This document shows, piece after piece, positions 8,225-57,288 of a DNA stretch of 64,000 nt (positions are counted from its first letter, which is position 1; every line of letters starts with the position of its first letter). Under the pieces are notes generated by a model. It did no database searches. It had not been told where the DNA came from and was given only the letters and a program-made list of their open reading frames with translations. The DNA is from Octopus vulgaris (lineage: Eukaryota), in assembly GCA_951406725.2 (NCBI GenBank), contig OX597814.1, forward strand, positions 58,342,001 through 58,406,000. Direction: 5' to 3'. A program made the position numbers and the translations under genes.

Positions 8225-8370
8225 TTTGGCAGAATTGTTAGAATGCAGGGCAAAACGCTTAGCGGAATTTTGTCCATTCTGAAGTTCTGAATTCAAATTC
8301 CACAGAGGCCTGCTATGCTTTCCATCGTTTCCGGTTCGATGAAATAAGTAACAGTTGAGTACAGGAGACG
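8225..8370 (+). mobile_element. Decayed SINE, same family as 8562-8792
   Basis: tggcagaattgttag...cttagcggaattt...ttcaaattcc...tttccatcgtttccggttcgatgaaataagtaacag. Confidence 0.65.
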
Positions 8371-8561: not shown

Positions 8562-8792
8562 GCGAGTATGTGGCAGAAACGTTAGCACGCCGGGCGAAAT
8601 GCGTACCCGTATTTCGTCTGCCGTTACGTTCCGAGTTCAAATTCCGCCGAGGTTGACTTTGCCTTTCATCCATTCGGGGTCTATAAATTAAGTACCAGTT
8701 ACGCACTGGGGTCGGTATAATCGACTTAATCCGTTTGTCTGTCCTTGTTTGTCCTGTCTGTGTTTAGCCCCTTGTGGGTAGTAAAAAATAGG
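8562..8792 (+). mobile_element. tRNA-derived SINE with conserved central domain (Meta/Nin-like) and a Tx1-like 3' tail
   Basis: Head tggcagaaacgttagc...gagttcaaattcc; core gcctttcatccattcggggtctataaattaagtaccag; tail tctgtgtttagccccttgtgggtagtaaaaaa resembles the end of the LINE at 38176-38210. The core-domain name is from memory and tentative. Confidence 0.85.
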
Positions 8793-9345
8793 TATGTGGA
8801 AAATACATTTTCCATCTCGTGTGTGATACAAGATGCAAAGAACGAAGGGGATTTAAATGTTGCGTGGTTTGATCTGCCTTGATCTTATGGTTCTGTACCA
8901 CACAAATTGTTTGATGGAAGCAATGGACTTTTTTCAAAAACTGAAAGAAATTAAGAATCTAATAAGGAGCTACTAAAACAATTTCAAATTACAGTTCATT
9001 GCAGAAAATTTCACAACAGATTGGCATCATCTTGAATTTGGAATTGCTGCATCTTGCATAATATCAATGATTTAGTTGGAGCTTGTTATGGAGATGCTTC
9101 TTAGATCAGAAAGATTATTCAGAAGAAATAGCTCAAGTTATAATTATCTAAGAAGGAATTAATGGATGACTTAATAATACTAAAAAGAAATCAAATGGAT
9201 ATGCAAATAGTTCTGGATAGATGAGATGAACTAACTACTTGGTTAAGAATGTGGTTTAAAGCAAATTGGTAATGCAGTCTTTCATTTGTCAAAGGTCAGA
9301 AGATGCAAGTGGAATTTAAAATAGTAGAAGAAACGATGCCAAAGT
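8793..9345 (+). pseudogene. RLE-type LINE (Hero/R2-group) RT fragment, decayed
   Basis: Broken frames give IQDAK...DLNVAWFDL..SYGSVPHKL, AMDFF, FTTDWHHLEFGIAASC.IS, MDDL and W.RM.FK. Confidence 0.7.
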
Positions 9346-10195
9346 TTAAAGTTTAGCATATCATTAAATGTTCTCTTAACCATTATCATGCTGTTGTGTC
9401 TTTTTACGTCTGGCTCTATTGGTTCTATTCAATTTCTCTATATTGCAACAGCCGTATGATGCGGTACCAAAGAGCCATTCTCGTCACCTCACATCACCCA
9501 GCCTTTATAAATGGAATAACCTAGTTCCTATAAGTAAAGAGAAGTACGTGAAATACCAGAGTACGTACTTGACAGCCATCTTGTTGATTGCTGTGCAACT
9601 ACTGCCTTTGTGTGGAACACGTCTGTTTTGCCGTATTGTGGCTGTGTTGTTCGACGTCTTCCCTCTTGTGTGATGGGGGCACATCGTGCTAGTTCCGTTC
9701 GTTGTAGTCTGTGAGTTTGTGAAGTTTTGTATTCAAAATTGGATTTAGCTGTTATTTGCTATTGATCAAGGCTTTTCTGCTCTCCTCCCTTAACAGAGGT
9801 GGGTGGGATGGCCAGATTTTTCTGCATAGTAGCCATAGTGATAGAAATAGTATGGAGAACACGGGTGAAAGATATCGCGACAGGTTCCTTTATTTGTAGC
9901 TGAAGTCTGGTTAATTATTTTAACTATCACTTCAGGAGTAAAATCAGGCTGGAAAAGACATACCTGTCGCACAGTATGTTCCCAAAATGATAGCTAAATG
10001 TTGAAAGAAATTTGAGAATGGATGGAACCGGCTGAGTCTAGCCATCCGACCAGGAAAAAAGGGAATGTAGGTTAATGGTGGTAGGCTTATTAGCCCAGGC
10101 AACTTACACATTCTTAATCGAATTTCATTTATTAAAAAGAATAATTTAACATCATATATTTGTAAACATTAACGGTTAAGACACGATAGAATTTA

Positions 10196-10256
10196 TGTTT
10201 GTCTGTCCTTTTACCGTCCCCTCTGTGTTCTGCCCTGTGTGGCAAATAAGGAAAAA
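10196..10256 (+). mobile_element. Isolated 3' terminus of a Tx1-like LINE or of the Tx1-tailed SINE
   Basis: tttgtctgtccttttaccgtcccctctgtgttctgccctgtgtggcaaataaggaaaaa aligns with both 8735-8790 and 38165-38210. Confidence 0.6.
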
Positions 10257-27079: not shown

Positions 27080-27220
27080 GGCGAGCTGGCAGAGTCGTTA
27101 GCGCGCTGAACGAAGTACTTAGCGGTATTTCGTCTCATCAACCGGGATGATGTTATCGATTTAATCCCGCTGTCCCTGTTTGTCTTCTATATGTTTAGCT
27201 CCCTGTGCGCAAGAAAAAAA
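27080..27220 (+). mobile_element. Internally deleted SINE (8562 family, Tx1-like tail)
   Basis: Head ggcgagctggcagagtcgttagc...ttagcggtatttcgtc joined to the tail tgtttgtcttctatatgtttagctccctgtgcgcaagaaaaaaa. Confidence 0.75.
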
Positions 27221-29890
27221 TATTTGTGTGTGCGCGCGCGCGTGTGTAGACGTATGTATGTGTGTGTGTGAGTGTGTGCGTGTGTATGTACCTGCATATT
27301 AGTTATAACTCTTGTTGATTAGCTCCAAGTCAGCTCAAATTTCAATGAGTAGAACCCCGTTAAAGGCTTTTAGTCACGATCAATGTTTTTCCCCCTTTTT
27401 TAATGATATCTAATATCACATAACTTATGTGTCTTTATTAAGGCTGTGGCGGGTGATTCGAGAATAAAATTGACAGCTATGCTAGCAACTCATGCATACA
27501 AGCAGAAACTCCTTATGTGTTTCCGGTGTAACTGAATTAGTTATTCATGTTTACGTACATGAATTAGTCTATGCATCATTGAACTCGTGTGTGGCTCTGT
27601 CTCTGTCTTTTACACACACACACACATACACACACTCACACACACACACGCACACACACACACACAAGGTTATTGCCAGCCGCAAATATGCTAAGGGAAT
27701 ATTCGAACACGTAAGAAAGCCATTAAGTATTTTGTCATGTAGAATATTTTTCGGTGTAGAAATGTGGTGTGTATACACCAAAATCATCTCATAGCTCCAA
27801 CTACCAAGACTCTGAGAGGCAAGCATGTCGGTTATTCTATCTTCAATCGCAGAAACTGGACAGGATGCACCGCGAGCTCATAAAAGAGATTATCTCCCTT
27901 ATGATATTCCCGTCATCGTATAATGACTGGGAGTGCTAATCAACGGCTCATCGCAAACAAATTATTGGATAGTAGCGCTAAGCACTGATGTGTATAAATA
28001 CAAATTTATATTCAGTTCAAATGTGTTTGGGGCATATTCGAAGCATTAAGAAAGCTATTTATTGTATTTTGTAATAGAAAAGATTTCTGGCTGTAGACAA
28101 GTGGTTTTTAAAAAACAGCTCGCTGTGCCAACAACCCAGACTGTGAGTTGCAAGCATTTCGAAGAGGCACTAATCAATGGTTACTTAGATGTGGTAGCAT
28201 TTTGAAGATATTCTACTCGTAAAATCTATTTGGATTTCAGTCCATTTGGTGAGAATGTTATTTTCTACAAGATTTAGAAACATAAAAATGTAAGTTTGTA
28301 ATATATTTTCGCACAAGCAATTGAAGATTTAAATGGTTTGGGAAACTTAAAGTGTGCAGATCACATAAATATTTTCACACCTTCCGAGAATGATGGCAGA
28401 AAGGAAAATTCTCATCTTATTGAAGACGTTACACAAACACTTCGAACTTATTAGACTCCAATAAATGCATAAAAGTAGCAAATAGCAGCGTTAAGCTGAA
28501 TAACTGATTACGACCACCACTGAAAAAGAGGAGCATTCTCTCCGATGGCTTACCACATTAATTCCATCTATCAGATTTAATCTATAATCCTTCGATTGAC
28601 ATGAAGCCAGGGTAAATGGCACTTTTCAATGGCGTCGTGCCAGTGATTGCAAAGAAACCTATTTTCGCAAAGCGAAATTTTTACTTCTTCAGATAATTAA
28701 ATTTATCACTCAACTTGAGTGAAACTTAAAGGTATTACCTAAAAAAAATTATTCCTTAATTGATTACATTTTATATCAAGCAATAAAAAATTCAGCTGTA
28801 CAATTTGTTCTCGTAAATATGCTAAACATTCTGTATAAAACAATAGAATTTATATTATTTCCGTCAAACAGTCATTAACATAAATGACGGGCACTGGAAG
28901 TAAAGAAGCTCAAGAAATAAAAAGGCACTGGTCTCCTCTCTCTCACGAAAATAAATAAATAAATAAAATGACAAAAAAAAATCCTAACAAACTACCTCGT
29001 TCCACAGTGGGCCTCTGATCTGAAGCTGACTAAAGGGTATTTAGTTTGAAATTTATATCGGATATTGCAGGAAGGCACATAGTGTTCTTGGGATTATAAT
29101 AGACTTCCCATATTTTTATTAGTGAATTGTGATATCTTATTTATTTGCTTATGGACGCTACGATAATGAACGTGATAAAATCTTTTTGCATGGTAGTATC
29201 ACACACTGTTTATTCAGTTACGTGAGGATGCACCCCATTGAAAAAAGATCTAAATATGATTAATATTAGTAAAGCTGAGTTCATGCAGAACTTAAAGTGC
29301 TTTAGCATACACTAATACACATGCTTAAAAAACTATCAAAATATCTAATACACCTACAACATCACATGGGATTATGAATAGAATGCATGCAAACGTTTTT
29401 AATTAAGATGAAGTTTTTTAGTAAGTATACTCTTTGGTACACAAGTATCGTTTGTGTAATGATGAATTACAAATTAACTTAACACCTAAATTCGACATCT
29501 CATATGACACCTCCGACACAGTACTTCTATAATATTTGTGACTGAGATTACTATGCCATATCAAAAACAATGTCGTTAAATTGATGTTGACGTTTTCTTT
29601 ATTTTATTCATAATTATGAATAAGAACTGAGATTTATTTGTACGATTTCGTGTATTCATATGAACACACACACGCGCGCATGCATACATACATCTGTTTG
29701 TGAGTATGTGCATAAAGTGGGGTGTGATAAACATAGATCATGAGGATGACAGAGAACAGATGCTAGTACTTGTAAGTACATGAATAATGTGTGCCGTTGC
29801 AAACGTGTCTTTCGTGAGTGCATGTGTGAGATCTCAGTTAATAAATATATGTTAAATCTATCTATCTATCTATTTTTCTATCCATGTATC

Positions 29891-31297: not shown

Positions 31298-31345
<48 letters not shown>
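31265..31345. repeat. (TATC)n microsatellite, left part of interrupted array
   Basis: Directly visible. Confidence 0.95.
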
Positions 31346-32322
<977 letters not shown>

Positions 32323-32646
32323 TGACGGATGTGATGTCGTTTCAGCTCCGAAGGTAATCATTTATTTTGACTATTTATAGGCCAATTTTTGTGTAGATTT
32401 TTGCAAATAAGGTGTGTAAGGCAACCAACTTTCATTTGAGTGCTTTTACAAGGGAGGAATTCGCCCCTAGGGGCAGTTTCGACCCCATTTCATTTCTATT
32501 ATTTTCTTCTCGACATTAGAAAATGTCTAGAAATTTTATTGTTGAACGCTGGTCGCGTTCTTTTATGGAACAAAATTTTCCTAGTCTGGAAACGACAGAG
32601 AAAAAAGAACGTTCGCACGGAAAATGCCAACGTGAAATTCGGTGAG

Positions 32647-34071
32647 ATGAACGCTGCAACCACGTGCGTTAACAGCCCTGTCACCACCGCCACCACCACC
32701 ACTAACAACAGCAACCACGAGACAACAACTGCTACCACCACCACCTCCACAACCACCACTACCACGACCAACATAAATGATAAAAATAAAACTGAAATGA
32801 AAACTATTGACAAAAACAACAGCAACAACAAGAACAACAATAAAAATGAACTATCTAATAGTGAAGATGCCAATACAAAAAAGTCAACAACAGTAAATTT
32901 CGCAGATATTCTTCGCCAGAAAAAGGAGATTGTTACATTCACAAATGAAGAGCTCATAGAAACAAGAGCTCTCTTTACAACCCGTGGACAAGATTTAGTC
33001 CTGCATACACCTCAACATATAAAACAAGAAATTGAAAATAAGACAATTGTATATAAAATTATTAGAAAAAACAAAAAACCAAATGAACAGATTACAAAAA
33101 CTGATGTGGAGAAATGTTTAAAAAACATAATGAAAGAAAAAGAGTATATAAACTGGGGTCCCCAGTTTAACACAGTAGTGGTCCGCTTCTCTAACCAGGA
33201 AGTGGCAAAAGCTCACTCTACTGAGTCTCTGGGAAATGATGAAATCATCATGGTCCCTTATTATAAAAACCAGAGGGTGAGTAGAATTACTATCAGAAAT
33301 GTACCCCCCGATATGCCGAACAAATGGATAACAGGGGCAATCTGTTACCACTTGAAAAAGATCAATATTCTAGAAACAGCCGTGTACCTAAACGACAATT
33401 GGGGTGGAAAAACAGTAGTAGTGACCATCCAGATTGAGGGGGCCTCTATCGAGAGCCTACCCGACAAGATATACTTGGAGAATGGGCAATGCCTATATGT
33501 TATGGCAGAAGGCAAAAAGCCTAGATGCTACAAATGTGGCAGCCCCGAACATTTGATTGCCAAGTGCGATCTGGTACAGAAAAAACAAGAAAGAACAATT
33601 CAGAAAACAAATAAAATCCCTTTGTTGCCAACACCAACACCAACACACTCAATTATGGAACAACGCCAAGAAAAACAACAAACCAGCAGACAAACCCCAA
33701 CAACATCACCAAGAAAAACAGTACCAACACAATCACCGTTGACTTCACAACCAATTAAACCTGTTGAATTAACAAAAAATAGACCCACGCCCACACCCAG
33801 GACGACAATTAAAAAGACAGAAAACACTGACGAGAAGACAAATGCTACCCCTAACACCACAACAACACAAACACCGCACAAAACATCAACAATTTATACA
33901 AGCATACATAGTGATCCTGTTCTTTTTCCTCTACCCCATACTGATACGTCGGACGAAGAAAGTTCGACGGAATGGCAAATAGCCACAGGGGTAAAAGAAA
34001 AAGATCCAAAAAATCCACCAAACAAGGAATTAAAGCAGGGAGATATCTCACTCAGGACAACATTCCCCTAG
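32647..34071 (+). CDS. ORF1 (gag-like nucleic-acid-binding protein), main frame
   Basis: First in-frame ATG at 32647; the track opens at GTG 32440. Has an RRM-like region, the zinc knuckle CYKCGSPEHLIAKC and Thr/Asn/Pro-rich low-complexity segments. Confidence 0.8.
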   Translation: MNAATTCVNSPVTTATTTTNNSNHETTTATTTTSTTTTTTTNINDKNKTEMKTIDKNNSNNKNNNKNELSNSEDANTKKSTTVNFADILRQKKEIVTFTNEELIETRALFTTRGQDLVLHTPQHIKQEIENKTIVYKIIRKNKKPNEQITKTDVEKCLKNIMKEKEYINWGPQFNTVVVRFSNQEVAKAHSTESLGNDEIIMVPYYKNQRVSRITIRNVPPDMPNKWITGAICYHLKKINILETAVYLNDNWGGKTVVVTIQIEGASIESLPDKIYLENGQCLYVMAEGKKPRCYKCGSPEHLIAKCDLVQKKQERTIQKTNKIPLLPTPTPTHSIMEQRQEKQQTSRQTPTTSPRKTVPTQSPLTSQPIKPVELTKNRPTPTPRTTIKKTENTDEKTNATPNTTTTQTPHKTSTIYTSIHSDPVLFPLPHTDTSDEESSTEWQIATGVKEKDPKNPPNKELKQGDISLRTTFP

Positions 34072-34403
34072 ACAATCAAAAAAGTAATGAACCCGTAAAA
34101 CCACACACACAACTAACTGCAATAGACACAGACAATAAAGAATTAATGGACTACATCAAATCTAACATGGTCGTCTGTGAAGATGATTTTAAGACAAACA
34201 ATCATCCGCACACCACACCACCGAAACACATCAGAATTTTACACATAACACAAGCACAACACCACATACTGAAAACATTATTTCCGAATGCGGTAGGCGG
34301 GTATCAACGATACCTGTCGAAAAAACTATACAAACACCTCATCAAAAACGATACAAATGAAGAAGAAGAAGAAAAAAATGAAACTTTTAAAATGAGTAAG
34401 TGA
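33972..34403 (+). CDS. ORF1 C-terminal continuation in the -1 frame
   Basis: Joining at gggg 33988-33991 gives EWQIATG-GKRKRSKK and one ~585-aa ORF1 ending 57 bp before ORF2. Confidence 0.65.
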   Translation: MANSHRGKRKRSKKSTKQGIKAGRYLTQDNIPLDNQKSNEPVKPHTQLTAIDTDNKELMDYIKSNMVVCEDDFKTNNHPHTTPPKHIRILHITQAQHHILKTLFPNAVGGYQRYLSKKLYKHLIKNDTNEEEEEKNETFKMSK

Positions 34404-34460
34404 CCTCACTTCTTGCCTCTTGTCTCTTCTAATATAGTGTGTAAAACACAATTTTCGTAA

Positions 34461-37400
34461 ATGTCAAGTATGCTTAAATTAGGTTGTGTGAATGCGCGTG
34501 GCTTGGCGTCGGCTTGGAAGCAAGGTTACCTTCTAAACGACATCAAGTCACTGGACGTGGATATAGTAGCTATCAGCGAAACCAGACTCAGTAAGCCGCG
34601 GGCCCTCGAGTCCATGTTTGGCAATCAATTTGACATTTATTTTTCTCCCTGTCTGCCGAACATGGGTGGTAGAGGTACTGCGGTGCTTTTTCGAAAGAGT
34701 CTAAAGGTAAAAGTAAGAGCAATATTCCTAGACCCGGAGGGTAGGCTCGTTGTCTTGGACGTGGATGGCAGAAATGGGTGTGCATTCCGTCTGATGGCAG
34801 TTTATGCACCGTCCTTAACGGGTCGGGCGGATTTCTTCAGACGTCTAGAGGTTTTCCTGGGTACGTCTAGACCTTTACTGTTAGTAGGGGATTGGAACGC
34901 TACCTTGGACACGCATCTAGATTATGTGGGAAGGGATAGGAATAGAAGGGGGTGTAAGAGCCTCAAAGACCTGCTCAGACGTTTCCATTTGTCTGACAGG
35001 TTCCGACTCGACCATCCGAACGTGCCAACGTGGACTTGGACAAACCGCGTCGGATCGTCGAGATCTTATCTAGATAGAATTCTATGCAGGACAGCGGATA
35101 GGGATAGTGTAGGTTGTCCACAATTTAAAATAGTCAGCTACACAGATCACAAATTTGTTACGTGTACGCTCGACTTAGATAAAACACATAGGCAGGGTCC
35201 CGGTTACTGGAAACTGAACACGTCGCTGTTAGCGCGACAGGTTTACAGGAACCGGATTAGCGAGTTAATTAAGAGGGCGCTGACGGGAGCGGTCGTTAAC
35301 AACCGCTGGTGGTACGCCCTGAAAATGGCAATAAAATCGGAATCAATTAGGTTTAGCAAGGAATTAGCGATAGAACGAAATAGAGTAGAGGGAGACTTAG
35401 TTAAGAAACTAGAAGAGGCACTTACCACTGGCAGCGCAACCAACGTGCTAGCTGCGAGGATGGCCCTCGACCAACACCTCAACGCCAAGCACGAAGGTTG
35501 CGTCGTCAGAGCTAAAATGCGTGCCTTAAGGAACGAAGGGATTGAAGCTGCGCGAGAGGCCCGGGTAGCGGAGGCGCAGCGTGGCAACAGATCAACCATT
35601 CGGTCTCTAATAGATCAACAGGGATGCAGTTTACTCGAACCCGAAAGGATGTGTGAGGCCTTTCAACAGCACTTTGCTCGACTGTTTGGTGCGAGTGGTG
35701 GGTCGGAACGAGGGATGGATTTCAGTGCCTACCTGACCGACCTGCCGCGGCTCTCGGCAAGAGAGGCGGAGTGTTGTGAAAGTCCCATCACAGCCGCTGA
35801 CGTGTGGGATGCGATGGCGGGCTGCGCGAGGGATAAGTCGCCTGGATTGGATGGTTTACCCTACGAGCTGTATTGTCGAATGCCAGACTTGTTTGGCGAC
35901 CTCTTGGCATCAGTCTACTGCAACTGGCAACAGAACGGGAGAATCCCCGGTTTCGTGAGCCGAGGTGCAGTGACGTTGCTGAAGAAAGACTCAAACAAGG
36001 GGAATTTTATAGATAATTTCAGGCCCATCACTCTGCTCAACGCAGATTTGAAAATTTTGGCCAAAGTAATAGCCGAGAGGTTGGCGCTTGTCATTGGTAA
36101 ACTGGTCGACAGGGCGCAAACATGCGCCGTTCCGGGCAGAACCATACATGACAACCTCCATCTGATGCGCTACATTGTGGGCAGGGTAGTTAAGGATCCT
36201 GGCATGGGTGGGGCGCTGATAAATTTGGATCAGTCTAAAGCCTTCGATAGGGTCGACCATCGGTACTTGGCGGCCGTCCTCAGGGCGGCTGGCTTCGGTC
36301 CCGTCTTCCGCGGTTGGATCGCTGCCTTGTATAGCGGCATCCGATCGGTGATTCGGGTGAACGGTCACCTGTCTAAACCGTTTGACATCACGCGTTCGGT
36401 CCGTCAGGGGTGTCCCCTGTCGGCGCTTCTGTATGTATTGACTCTCGAGCCGCTACTGCGGAAGCTGGCGACACTGAGGGGCATCCCACGGGAACTGGGT
36501 TGCGGGACGAGCGTGTCGGCATATGCGGACGATGTCACCGTCATAGTGTCGAGCTACCAGCACATCGAGCTGGTCGGCGAGACACTAAGAAAATATGAAA
36601 CGGTGACGGGAGCAAAGATTAACCCGGAAAAGTCAGTGGGTTTGCTACTCGGCACCTGGAGAAGCAAGCCCATGCCGTCCGACTGCGGCTCAGTAGTGGG
36701 ACGCTGGACGGACGGACCGGTTAAATTGCTCGGGGTCTGGTTCAGTCCGGACCTCCAAATGGATAAGAACTGGGACGAGATCACGAGTAGAGTGGTCGCT
36801 CTCAGCCAAAAATGGGCCGAGAGAAAGCTGTCTCTAAAAGGCCGGGTGGAGGTGGCGAACGCGTACATCGCATCCGTCATCGATTACCGCCTGACCGTCG
36901 TACCTTGTCCCGACGCCACCATCACCAAACTGGAACGCATACTCTTCCGCTTCCTGTGGAAGGGTGGCGTTCCGATGGTGAGGAAGTCCATTTGCTGTCA
37001 ACATCCGTTGAATGGAGGACTGGGCATGCCGTGGTTGATGATGCGCAGGCATGCGCTGAGACTGCGACATCTCTGGAAATTCATCGACGACGGTGAACAG
37101 GTGTGGGCGCCGTTTGTGAGGCGCGACTTCCCGCAGCTCGTCTCACTGACCGAACTGCAAACGTGGATCAAAAAGAGACCGAAACTGGGCGATTGGCACC
37201 GAGAGTGTCGCCAAGCTCTACAGCAGCTCTGCCGACCGGGGTCAAACTTGTGCAACTTCCAAACGACTAAAGCGTTCTATAGAGGACTAGTGGAGGGGAG
37301 GTCCGACGACACACTCGGGGCAAACCTGGGCGTCGACGAGGAATTCCTAACCCGCCTGTTCAGGACGACGTTCGGGCCGGGGCCTATGGATAACTTCCAG

Positions 37401-37910
37401 AAATCCCTGGCTTGGCAGTGCTATCGAGACGCACTACCTGTTCGAGAGAAGAGCTACAGACACGGTTCGAAAACCATCACCGGACCGACCTGCCCGAGAT
37501 GCGGTCAGAGCGACGAAACCGTTCTGCACGCACTCGTGCAGTGTCCAGATATTTCAGAGCTGTGGTCCTTCGTCGAACAGCTGTTGTCACGTGTAGGTCA
37601 GGCTCGCCTATCGGCCGAGTCTATTGTGAATATTGTTCCACCACCTTCCTTTAAACGGGAAGGGAAAACGGTTTTCGTTACGCTGATGGCTATGGCGAAA
37701 GAATGTGTGTGGTGGACGCGTTTGAAAGGACTGCAAACAAACACCTTCCTCTCTGGTCAGTCTCTCGTCAACTTTTTCAAGTATCACTTGAAAAGGAGGA
37801 TGAGAATAGAGAGGAAGGCTTTGTCGAACGAATGTTTTAATAAAAAGTGGGTAAAAGTGGCAAAAATGGTCAGTATGAAAGACGACACTATTTTAAGCAT
37901 AAATCTGTAA
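34461..37910 (+). CDS. ORF2: APE endonuclease, reverse transcriptase and C-terminal zinc-binding domain (1149 aa, intact)
   Basis: EN motifs NARGL, ISET, VYAP, GDWN, YLDRI, TDH; PGYWKLN linker; RT motifs KSPGLDG, FRPITLLN, DQSKAFDRV, VRQGCPLS, YADD; C-terminal CPRC...ETVLHALVQC. Confidence 0.97.
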   Translation: MSSMLKLGCVNARGLASAWKQGYLLNDIKSLDVDIVAISETRLSKPRALESMFGNQFDIYFSPCLPNMGGRGTAVLFRKSLKVKVRAIFLDPEGRLVVLDVDGRNGCAFRLMAVYAPSLTGRADFFRRLEVFLGTSRPLLLVGDWNATLDTHLDYVGRDRNRRGCKSLKDLLRRFHLSDRFRLDHPNVPTWTWTNRVGSSRSYLDRILCRTADRDSVGCPQFKIVSYTDHKFVTCTLDLDKTHRQGPGYWKLNTSLLARQVYRNRISELIKRALTGAVVNNRWWYALKMAIKSESIRFSKELAIERNRVEGDLVKKLEEALTTGSATNVLAARMALDQHLNAKHEGCVVRAKMRALRNEGIEAAREARVAEAQRGNRSTIRSLIDQQGCSLLEPERMCEAFQQHFARLFGASGGSERGMDFSAYLTDLPRLSAREAECCESPITAADVWDAMAGCARDKSPGLDGLPYELYCRMPDLFGDLLASVYCNWQQNGRIPGFVSRGAVTLLKKDSNKGNFIDNFRPITLLNADLKILAKVIAERLALVIGKLVDRAQTCAVPGRTIHDNLHLMRYIVGRVVKDPGMGGALINLDQSKAFDRVDHRYLAAVLRAAGFGPVFRGWIAALYSGIRSVIRVNGHLSKPFDITRSVRQGCPLSALLYVLTLEPLLRKLATLRGIPRELGCGTSVSAYADDVTVIVSSYQHIELVGETLRKYETVTGAKINPEKSVGLLLGTWRSKPMPSDCGSVVGRWTDGPVKLLGVWFSPDLQMDKNWDEITSRVVALSQKWAERKLSLKGRVEVANAYIASVIDYRLTVVPCPDATITKLERILFRFLWKGGVPMVRKSICCQHPLNGGLGMPWLMMRRHALRLRHLWKFIDDGEQVWAPFVRRDFPQLVSLTELQTWIKKRPKLGDWHRECRQALQQLCRPGSNLCNFQTTKAFYRGLVEGRSDDTLGANLGVDEEFLTRLFRTTFGPGPMDNFQKSLAWQCYRDALPVREKSYRHGSKTITGPTCPRCGQSDETVLHALVQCPDISELWSFVEQLLSRVGQARLSAESIVNIVPPPSFKREGKTVFVTLMAMAKECVWWTRLKGLQTNTFLSGQSLVNFFKYHLKRRMRIERKALSNECFNKKWVKVAKMVSMKDDTILSINL

Positions 37911-38209
37911 CCAAAAGAGACAACGAGAAGTAAGGCGACTTACTCATGTGTTCGTTTTCGAATTGCCTGAGGTGACCTTGGTCTTTTTTGTAGGTTTTTC
38001 TTTCCAAGACCACACCTAAACTGTGAACCTTATATATATATATATATTGCTTTTTTATACACCACACAACCCACAGATCCCTATTGATCAAACGTTTTTT
38101 TTTTTTTTTTTCTTCTTGCCCCACCCATCCCACCTCGAAAAGAAAAATTCTACATTGTATTTCGTCCATTTTTATTCTGTGTTTAGCCCTGTGTGGCTAC
38201 AATAAAAAG

Positions 38210-38210
<1 letters not shown>

Positions 38211-38299
<89 letters not shown>

Positions 38300-38317
38300 G
38301 ACTATCTATCTACCTAC

Positions 38318-38401
<84 letters not shown>

Positions 38402-38412
38402 ATTTCTTTCTT

Positions 38413-38452
<40 letters not shown>
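38211..38452. repeat. (TATC)n microsatellite, right part of interrupted array
   Basis: Directly visible. Confidence 0.95.
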
Positions 38453-45454: not shown

Positions 45455-45651
45455 GTGGCGAGCTTTTGCACTCCGAGAAATATGTAGCGGCATTTCGGTC
45501 GTCTTTAGATTATGACATCAAATTTCGCTGAAGTTGATTTATGTTTTTATTTTTTGCATTTCATCCGTTCGACATTGATAAAATTAGTACCTGTTGGGTA
45601 TTGGCTTCCTCCCTCGAAAGCGCTGGCCCTGTGCCAAGATCTTAAACCAAT
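45455..45651 (+). mobile_element. Decayed SINE (8562-type head and core, alternative tail)
   Basis: ggcgagct...agcggcatttcg...gcatttcatccgttcgacattgataaaattagtacc...gctggccctgtgccaagatcttaaaccaat. Confidence 0.7.
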
Positions 45652-49179: not shown

Positions 49180-49315
49180 CGGATGCTAGCACGCCAGCAA
49201 AAAGCTTAGCAGAATTTCTTCTGTACGCACGTTCTAAGTTCGAATTTTGCCTTGGGGATCAATAAAGCAAGTACCAGTCAACCCCTGCCTCCTTGTACTA
49301 AATTTTGAAGCCAAT
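49180..49315 (+). mobile_element. Decayed, deleted SINE (45455 type)
   Basis: tgctagcacgccagcaaaaagcttagc...gttctaagttcgaatt...ggggatcaataaagcaagtaccag...ccttgtactaaattttgaagccaat. Confidence 0.6.
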
Positions 49316-57079: not shown

Positions 57080-57288
57080 TATTGGTTTCAAATTTTGGTA
57101 CAAGGCTAGCAAATGTTTTTTGAAGTTGTTTGCCTCGGACGCAGAGCTCATCTGGAACTTATTTTATTGAGCCCGAAGGGTGAAGGGCAAAGGTGACTTC
57201 GGTGGAATTTGAACTGAGAAGGTAAGAACGGACGAAATGCTGCTAAGTATTTTTCCCGGTGTGCTAACAATTCTGCTGGCTCACCGCT
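57080..57288 (-). mobile_element. SINE (8562-type head and core, alternative tail as at 45455)
   Basis: Minus strand gcggtgagccagcagaattgttagcacaccggg...cttagcagcatttcgtcc...gttcaaattccaccgaagtcacctttgcccttcacccttcggg...gccttgtaccaaaatttgaaaccaat. Confidence 0.8.

Follow-up and report, generated by a model that had tools for sequence, protein, structure and literature searches.

Within the L1 clade, 3′ tails shared between a SINE and a LINE have been described in maize and sorghum, where ZmSINE2 and ZmSINE3 are paired with LINE1-1_ZM, and in Chlamydomonas, where SINEX-3_CR is paired with L1-1_CR (PMC3472496; PMC3747384). Of the 58 pairs that Ohshima lists in the accessible portions of these papers, three involve an L1-tail SINE, none of them from an animal, and the tables hold no Tx1 or octopus entry (PMC3747384). 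On Ohshima's proposal the L1 group began with stringent 3′ recognition, from which the poly(A) recognition of mammalian elements derives by relaxation; the supporting pairs in those portions come from plants and an alga. The crocodilian SINEU, which carries poly(A), has been tied to Tx1-Mar because both use the same target, and in the available part of that study no LINE matched the 3′ half of SINEU-1 (PMC4494074). For UnaSINE/UnaL2 and for ZfL2-1/ZfL2-2, the accessible text reports a 3′ stem-loop that is recognised by ORF2 and whose loop differs between families (PMC4176376). ORF1-only elements are represented by HAL1, or half-L1, as described in the available part of PMC5753468. The octopus tRNA-type SINEs OR1 and OR2 are named in PMC4824008 and PMC4758252, and neither the available sections of these two papers nor Ohshima's table names a partner LINE for them. 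No Tx1 tail pair is named in the accessible portions of PMC13282606, PMC8967140, PMC4758252, PMC10294476, PMC5786205, PMC7245038, PMC3531059, PMC4176376, PMC5753468 or PMC4824008. In searches of open-access papers we found no animal case of a SINE sharing its tail with a Tx1 element; subscription papers or Repbase could hold one.

The window analyzed here is a stretch of 64,000 nucleotides of Octopus vulgaris (contig OX597814.1, positions 58,342,001 to 58,406,000). Following up an earlier note on this DNA, we found that a 231-bp SINE, four ORF2-bearing L1/Tx1-like groups (A to D) and an ORF1-only family (E) have a 3′ tail of about 55 nt in common.

The shared 3′ tail

Copies of the SINE in the window have the following features.

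8571 to 8790, plus strand: SINE copy, 5′ end short by about 11 nt (the full unit is 231 bp)
8571 to 8582, plus strand: A-box-like motif, part of a likely Pol III internal promoter, from comparison of the sequence with the A-box consensus
8633 to 8645, plus strand: B-box-like motif, read off the sequence, 1 nt longer than the consensus
8730 to 8790, plus strand: SINE tail common to the Tx1-like LINEs and the half-Tx1 family
8767 to 8779, plus strand: predicted hairpin in the SINE tail, 4 bp with a 5-nt loop
8566 to 8573, plus strand: left copy of the target-site duplication, 8 bp, overlapping the SINE start
8792 to 8799, plus strand: right copy of the target-site duplication
27080 to 27222, plus strand: second SINE copy, diverged and internally deleted

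The 14-nt identity between SINE and LINE from which the earlier note started is present at two places in the window and no others, 8757-8770 (the note had 8756) and 38176-38189. To place the tails on a common scale we took as reference a majority sequence built from a sample of 79 SINE tails. The last 70 nt of the intact LINE in the window (family A) matched it at 21 of 24 nt with a score of 33, where shuffles averaged 14.0 ± 2.3 with a maximum of 25 and 99.5% of 5000 random genomic 70-mers scored 26 or less. The related LINE tails scored higher (A2, 51; B, 55; C, 55), and 0/2000 shuffles reached the score of A or of any of these, which places the similarity far above chance. Family B has 26 consecutive nucleotides identical to the SINE tail, and the group C end in the window scores 55 over 59 columns, above the intact family A LINE. 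Closest to the SINE is the tail of family E, which scored 58-78 in 29/29 copies and for one pair is identical at 50 of 55 nt. An upstream gtcc.ttt block that had been described as similar between the two elements is strong in sister families; in the window LINE it is weak and falls outside the local alignment. The LINE groups are diverged in ORF2, yet the tail stays at the same terminal place. LINE tails contain AATAAA, and the tail is low in complexity, being rich in T, G and C. There is no poly(A) on the SINE, A or B ends, so these elements do not match the relaxed, poly(A)-type L1 pattern.

Among the other LINE clades compared, none matched the SINE tail, in line with the earlier proposal. 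The end of the RTE element in the window scored 12, a value equalled or exceeded by 828/2000 shuffles, and the 0.5-2 kb that follow six RT remnants of other clades gave best scores of 14-24, a comparison that excludes abundant rivals in the sample but not rare ones.

Aligning 33 tails, with representatives that we picked ourselves, gave three blocks, the first rich in T, G and C, the second rich in C, and the third a 4-bp stem whose loop is 5 or 6 nt long, followed by an A-rich end. Among 31 distinct tails, 106/124 stem positions could pair, compared with 94.1 ± 2.8 after shuffling (0/20000 as high), and with Watson-Crick pairs only the count was 96 vs 84.2 (8/20000); the stem was chosen by eye, loop length was set by best pairing in data and control alike, and one row was shifted by hand by one column. 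The 6-nt-loop register has 17 double-sided changes, a number reached in 0/500 shuffles, and the 5-nt-loop register taken alone has no covariation. Single-strand folding detected no significant stability (z-scores -0.75 to +0.59). Given these unremarkable folding energies and the kinship among tails that inflates such controls, the analysis supports, and does not prove, a small conserved hairpin with compensatory changes in the shared tails. The consensus alignment called for by the earlier note therefore yields a shared tail of about 55 nt with a predicted 4-bp stem-loop.

Tx1-like LINEs and an ORF1-only family

Two of the LINE groups are represented in the window.

32323 to 38209, plus strand: Tx1-like LINE of family A, both ORFs open, within an (ATCT)n array; the 5′ end (32323) was taken from where the array stops
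32647 to 34071, plus strand: ORF1, 474 aa from the first Met, one CCHC zinc knuckle, no Pfam match
34461 to 37910, plus strand: ORF2, 1149 aa, with AP endonuclease, reverse transcriptase and zinc finger (Pfam)
38150 to 38209, plus strand: family A tail, hairpin at 38184-38199, no poly(A) at the end
38212 to 38451, plus strand: (ATCT)n target array, 3′ side (the 5′ side is 32221-32320)
9784 to 10256, plus strand: second Tx1-like LINE, group C, decayed and 5′-truncated, with ORF2 C-terminus, 3′ UTR and tail

The family A element has the traits of the L1 group: two ORFs, an ORF2 combining AP endonuclease, RT and zinc finger, and human L1 ORF2p as its best solved-structure match (E 2e-59, vs E 1e-21 for R2). 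All 30 fetched family A ends pass straight into (ATCT)n, also without poly(A). The top copies are 0.3% from their own majority, and family A divergence is put at under 1.5%, from top matches that are biased toward young copies. It is common for such (ATCT)n arrays to contain a number of Tx1-like ends, from different subfamilies, all stacked in the same orientation. Just upstream of the family A LINE, the same array contains a 5′-truncated LINE remnant (31340-32220) whose open frame spans 337 aa and whose end is (TGA)n; we take this remnant to be RTE-like, and its end is unlike the SINE tail.

The second LINE bears on another suggestion, that further relatives lie at 27185-27220 and 10221-10256. 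The former indeed falls within the diverged SINE copy at 27080-27222. The latter belongs to a LINE: residues 1061-1128 of the ORF2 match 9784-9987 (tblastn, E 3e-10), which makes 10221-10256 the end of the group C element and not a SINE. The group C copy carries the hairpin at 10231-10244. In some loci, the 5′ part of an ORF1-bearing element lies directly after a group C tail, a hint that this group may aim at related retroelements.

Following the tail genome-wide uncovered more ATCT-targeting subfamilies as well as groups B, C, D and E. Family B has an ORF2 about 60% identical to that of family A and uninterrupted in 4/14 full-length copies. Its ends (24/24) lie at one base in the head of a different SINE and run directly into target DNA without poly(A), with a duplication of about 16 bp (by eye); top copies are 0.3-0.4% from the majority, once more among top matches biased toward young elements. 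Group D is older and decayed, with a weaker hairpin (2-3 of 4 positions paired) and most of its ends lie in trinucleotide repeats, namely (ATT)n, (ATC)n or (TTC)n. Overall, ORF2 identity to family A in the related groups is about 40-63%.

Family E is a half-Tx1 element. No ORF2 was found in 18/18 loci, and ORF1 reaches the tail in 14 of them. With 3303 first-look candidates it is multi-copy and 5′-truncated, comprises several subfamilies, and is in places stacked head to tail. Its copies have no common target, part of them have duplications, and the top copies are 3% diverged. The presence of ORF1, the absence of ORF2, the multiple truncated copies and the duplications are all HAL1-like, and E is a second non-autonomous passenger with the same tail.

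In an RT tree of 31 rows, from which one remnant without a match was left out, groups A to D cluster in a single clade (support 97/99) that also takes in two database proteins, of which one is from Argonauta. Among named proteins, the nearest relatives of the ORF2 belong to Argonauta hians and to a cuttlefish; no protein named Tx1 was among the database matches listed, and a search of metagenome contigs found no relatives. Because the tree holds no named Tx1 reference, we apply the label Tx1 on grounds of architecture and of a preference for certain targets, the latter seen for A in (ATCT)n, for B at its site in another SINE and for D in trinucleotide repeats. Membership in the Tx1 clade proper is therefore putative. 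The CCHC knuckle of ORF1 is a Tx1 trait. These LINEs also match the architecture and targets given for Tx1 in the accessible part of Kojima 2015 (PMC4494074).

Copies of the SINE and its probable driver

Abundant tRNA-derived SINEs were reportedly described in octopus by Ohshima and Okada in 1994, and the 231-bp SINE may be one of them. It has SINE2-type traits, being short, non-coding, high in copy number and flanked by target-site duplications. ARAGORN made 0 tRNA calls and Rfam gave 0 matches on the window copy, a strict B-box pattern did not match at 8633-8645, and the A and B box-like motifs were recognised by eye; they would serve a putative Pol III transcript. Also by eye, the SINE bore no likeness to BivaMeta-SINE1, a member of the MetaSINE superfamily with its 66-bp Meta domain behind the head, in the available part of the PMC4824008 supplement.

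A first look at the genome returned 3601 SINE candidates, and the best 29 other copies are 94-96% identical. For a sample without selection we took 100 evenly spaced 10-kb stretches from six contigs of the 2.8-Gb genome. These gave 104 tail-like matches, 83 with the SINE body upstream and 21 without; the latter comprised 7 truncated SINE tails, 11 weak matches in another SINE and 3 LINE-type tails. Scaled up, the sample corresponds to about 230,000 SINE copies (154,000 by exact end pattern), and tail density in the sampled stretches is about 90 per Mb for the SINE vs 3 per Mb for LINE-type tails. Divergence from the majority in this unbiased sample (n = 79) has a median of 6% and a minimum of 2.7%, with 0/79 copies at 2% or less.

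The 3′ end of the SINE is fixed. In a set of ends and junctions that mixes sampled with search-selected loci, 72/73 non-multimer ends have the same last base, none of 150 ends is followed by an A-run of at least 8, and the bases just past the end follow a G/T-G/A-T-A-T consensus. Target-site duplications of 9-25 bp flank 28/67 full-head copies, and the main SINE subfamily lacks AATAAA with its end point unchanged. Multimers are common, with lengths of 231 + n × 184 bp, and the junction between units falls inside the head. A single duplication encloses several of these arrays, which indicates that arrays moved as units. We had considered that multimers arise from a Tx1 family targeting the SINE head; this was dropped, given the single duplication around arrays and that no such LINE was seen. 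Internal tails in multimers, along with the fixed ends, are consistent with initiation set by the tail and not by the RNA end. Sequences related to the head and body of the SINE, but older and 69-77% identical to it, lie at 8227-8356, 57152-57276 (minus strand), 2890-2945, 45477-45595 and 49197-49278. Their BLAST matches are without the shared tail, which suggests that tails may have been exchanged inside the SINE lineage.

The earlier note had named the intact ORF2 of the window, or a relative, as the possible driver of the SINE. The suggested comparison of ages speaks against the former, since family A, at under 1.5% among its top copies, is much younger than a SINE burst at 6%. The target sites disagree as well: 0/80 sampled SINE ends continue into ATCT repeats in a sample with 51 such arrays, and genome-wide 128 SINE ends adjoin (ATCT)3 vs about 229 expected at random. 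As family A is much younger and its (ATCT)n target is not shared by the SINE, it is probably not the driver, and the intact LINE in the window probably did not produce the bulk of the SINE. A relative of its ORF2 is a plausible source. At the family B site we found 14 SINE ends, where about 16 would be expected across four registers; B's own register accounts for all 14, and the target head precedes 12 of them, which is suggestive, although short end-homology could explain it. Every ORF2-bearing family with enough copies shows target preference (A, B and D, with C tentative), and the SINE does not. Searching for an autonomous family with the SINE's exact tail, we found 2 matches to a pattern of LINE-type upstream sequence plus SINE-type hairpin, both of them SINEs. 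The pattern without the SINE's upstream letters gave 206 matches with 0 LINEs among the 30 examined (27 had the SINE body and 3 were tail-only without an ORF2 match), and E-type ORF1 loci, followed as a route to the driver, had an ORF2 in 0/18. These patterns thus returned no autonomous family bearing that tail.

We hypothesize that the SINE was copied in trans by an ORF2 of the cephalopod Tx1-like radiation that recognised the tail and its hairpin, and that the driver was an older, loosely targeting sister family, a reading to which we assign a probability of roughly 0.7. Under this model a Pol III transcript of the SINE would be bound by a Tx1-like ORF2 through tail and predicted hairpin and not through poly(A), reverse transcription would begin a fixed distance past the hairpin, and priming would occur at a loosely preferred G/T-G/A-T-A-T site. 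The SINE probably gained its tail by a template switch from a LINE or from family E, whose tail is closest and which is therefore one possible source. The duplication lengths of the SINE overlap those of B and E. We infer from these sequence features that recognition is stringent. The stringent Tx1-SINE pair originally proposed thus stands in its shared structured tail, its lack of poly(A) and the failure of any other clade compared to match; stringency and Tx1 membership proper are putative.

Alternatively, the SINE could have been driven by the families with targets of their own, A or B or a direct ancestor of either. The landing site would then be set largely by each RNA, through pairing of 3′ read-through sequence and, in some families, through a short target-complementary stretch upstream, so that the SINE would land elsewhere; we regard this as unlikely. 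Family B holds, in the 3′ UTR upstream of its tail, a 10-bp complement of its own target, and this stretch pairs better with its own flank than with 30/30 flanks from other groups. A similar complement is present in 5/8 E and 2/6 C tails (at most 2 flanks better) and absent from 6/6 A, 8/8 D and 2/2 SINE tails. Junctions of E and of the SINE each open with their own family-typical letters. Among the (ATCT)n matches listed, 94/100 SINE ends use the A-group register, but that register is also expected from the general junction consensus of the SINE. The uninterrupted ORF2 copies of B would fit this reading. B's loop is unlike the SINE's, and the top copies of A and B (0.3-0.4%, biased young) contrast with an unbiased SINE sample that has no copy under 2%. 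A further reading, which we consider unlikely, is a two-part RNA address, in which the clade-wide tail hairpin brings in the enzyme while the target is chosen by an adjoining stretch that varies and is complementary to the landing site. If true, passengers (the SINE and the ORF1-only family) would plug into the same enzymes through the tail, and a passenger that has no strong guide stretch would escape targeting and spread throughout the genome, which would account for one of the largest SINE bursts in octopus. Site choice in an AP-endonuclease LINE would then be RNA-guided.

It is less likely still that the Tx1-like tail is a relic and that an RTE, CR1 or R4 LINE accepting the SINE loosely produced the burst. 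The SINE's lack of a Tx1-like fixed target and the failure to find a matching driver would fit this, as would the recent activity of RTE, CR1 and Dong-R4 LINEs in Octopus vulgaris recorded in the available part of PMC13282606. However, the SINE tail is unlike the other-clade ends scored above (12 for the window RTE, 14-24 for the six remnants), the SINE has no short tandem-repeat tail of the kind seen on the window RTE, and its end base is fixed and its hairpin kept in the subfamilies. Convergence on, or passive retention of, a 3′-processing signal (AATAAA with upstream U/G-rich words) would draw on the AATAAA in LINE tails and on the low complexity of the tail. We judge it very improbable, because the identities to B (26 nt) and E (50/55) are beyond convergence, and because the main SINE subfamily ends at the same point without AATAAA and copies lack poly(A). 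Hardly credible at all is the reverse direction, with LINEs gaining the tail from downstream SINE copies: SINE tails are far commoner, but no SINE body lies upstream of the tail in LINE 3′ UTRs, and the divergence of tails among LINE groups is far above the 6% spread of the SINE, which makes the tail older in the LINEs.

Comparison with described SINE/LINE pairs

If a sister family of the Tx1-like LINEs copied the SINE, one of the major SINEs of octopus would have a likely source for its enzyme, and the question arises why a passenger is dispersed when the LINEs that carry it prefer particular targets. Ohshima's idea also becomes directly testable in an animal, in a Tx1-like lineage that combines a conserved tail and its compensatory variants with young copies whose frames are open and with passengers of two kinds.

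Compared with the plant and algal pairs, the octopus case is alike in that an L1-group LINE and a SINE share a 3′ end (about 45-80 nt), in that stringency is concluded from sequence, and, for the plants, in a hairpin with compensatory changes. It differs in its animal host, in a target-preferring Tx1-like lineage, in having no poly(A) or poly(T), and in a tail common to several LINE groups and an ORF1-only family. SINEU and Tx1-Mar, as far as the accessible text describes them, likewise involve a SINE proposed to be moved by Tx1-clade machinery, with Tx1 families that target microsatellites or transposons as A, D and B do; in octopus, however, the tail is shared and the target is not. The L2 pairs offer a working model for the octopus tail from another clade, one in which recognition was demonstrated by experiment where ours is deduced, and their stem-loop can be set against an octopus hairpin of only 4-5 bp. 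Finally, family E resembles HAL1 in being ORF1-only and dependent on an autonomous partner, and differs from it in its structured shared tail and its lack of poly(A).
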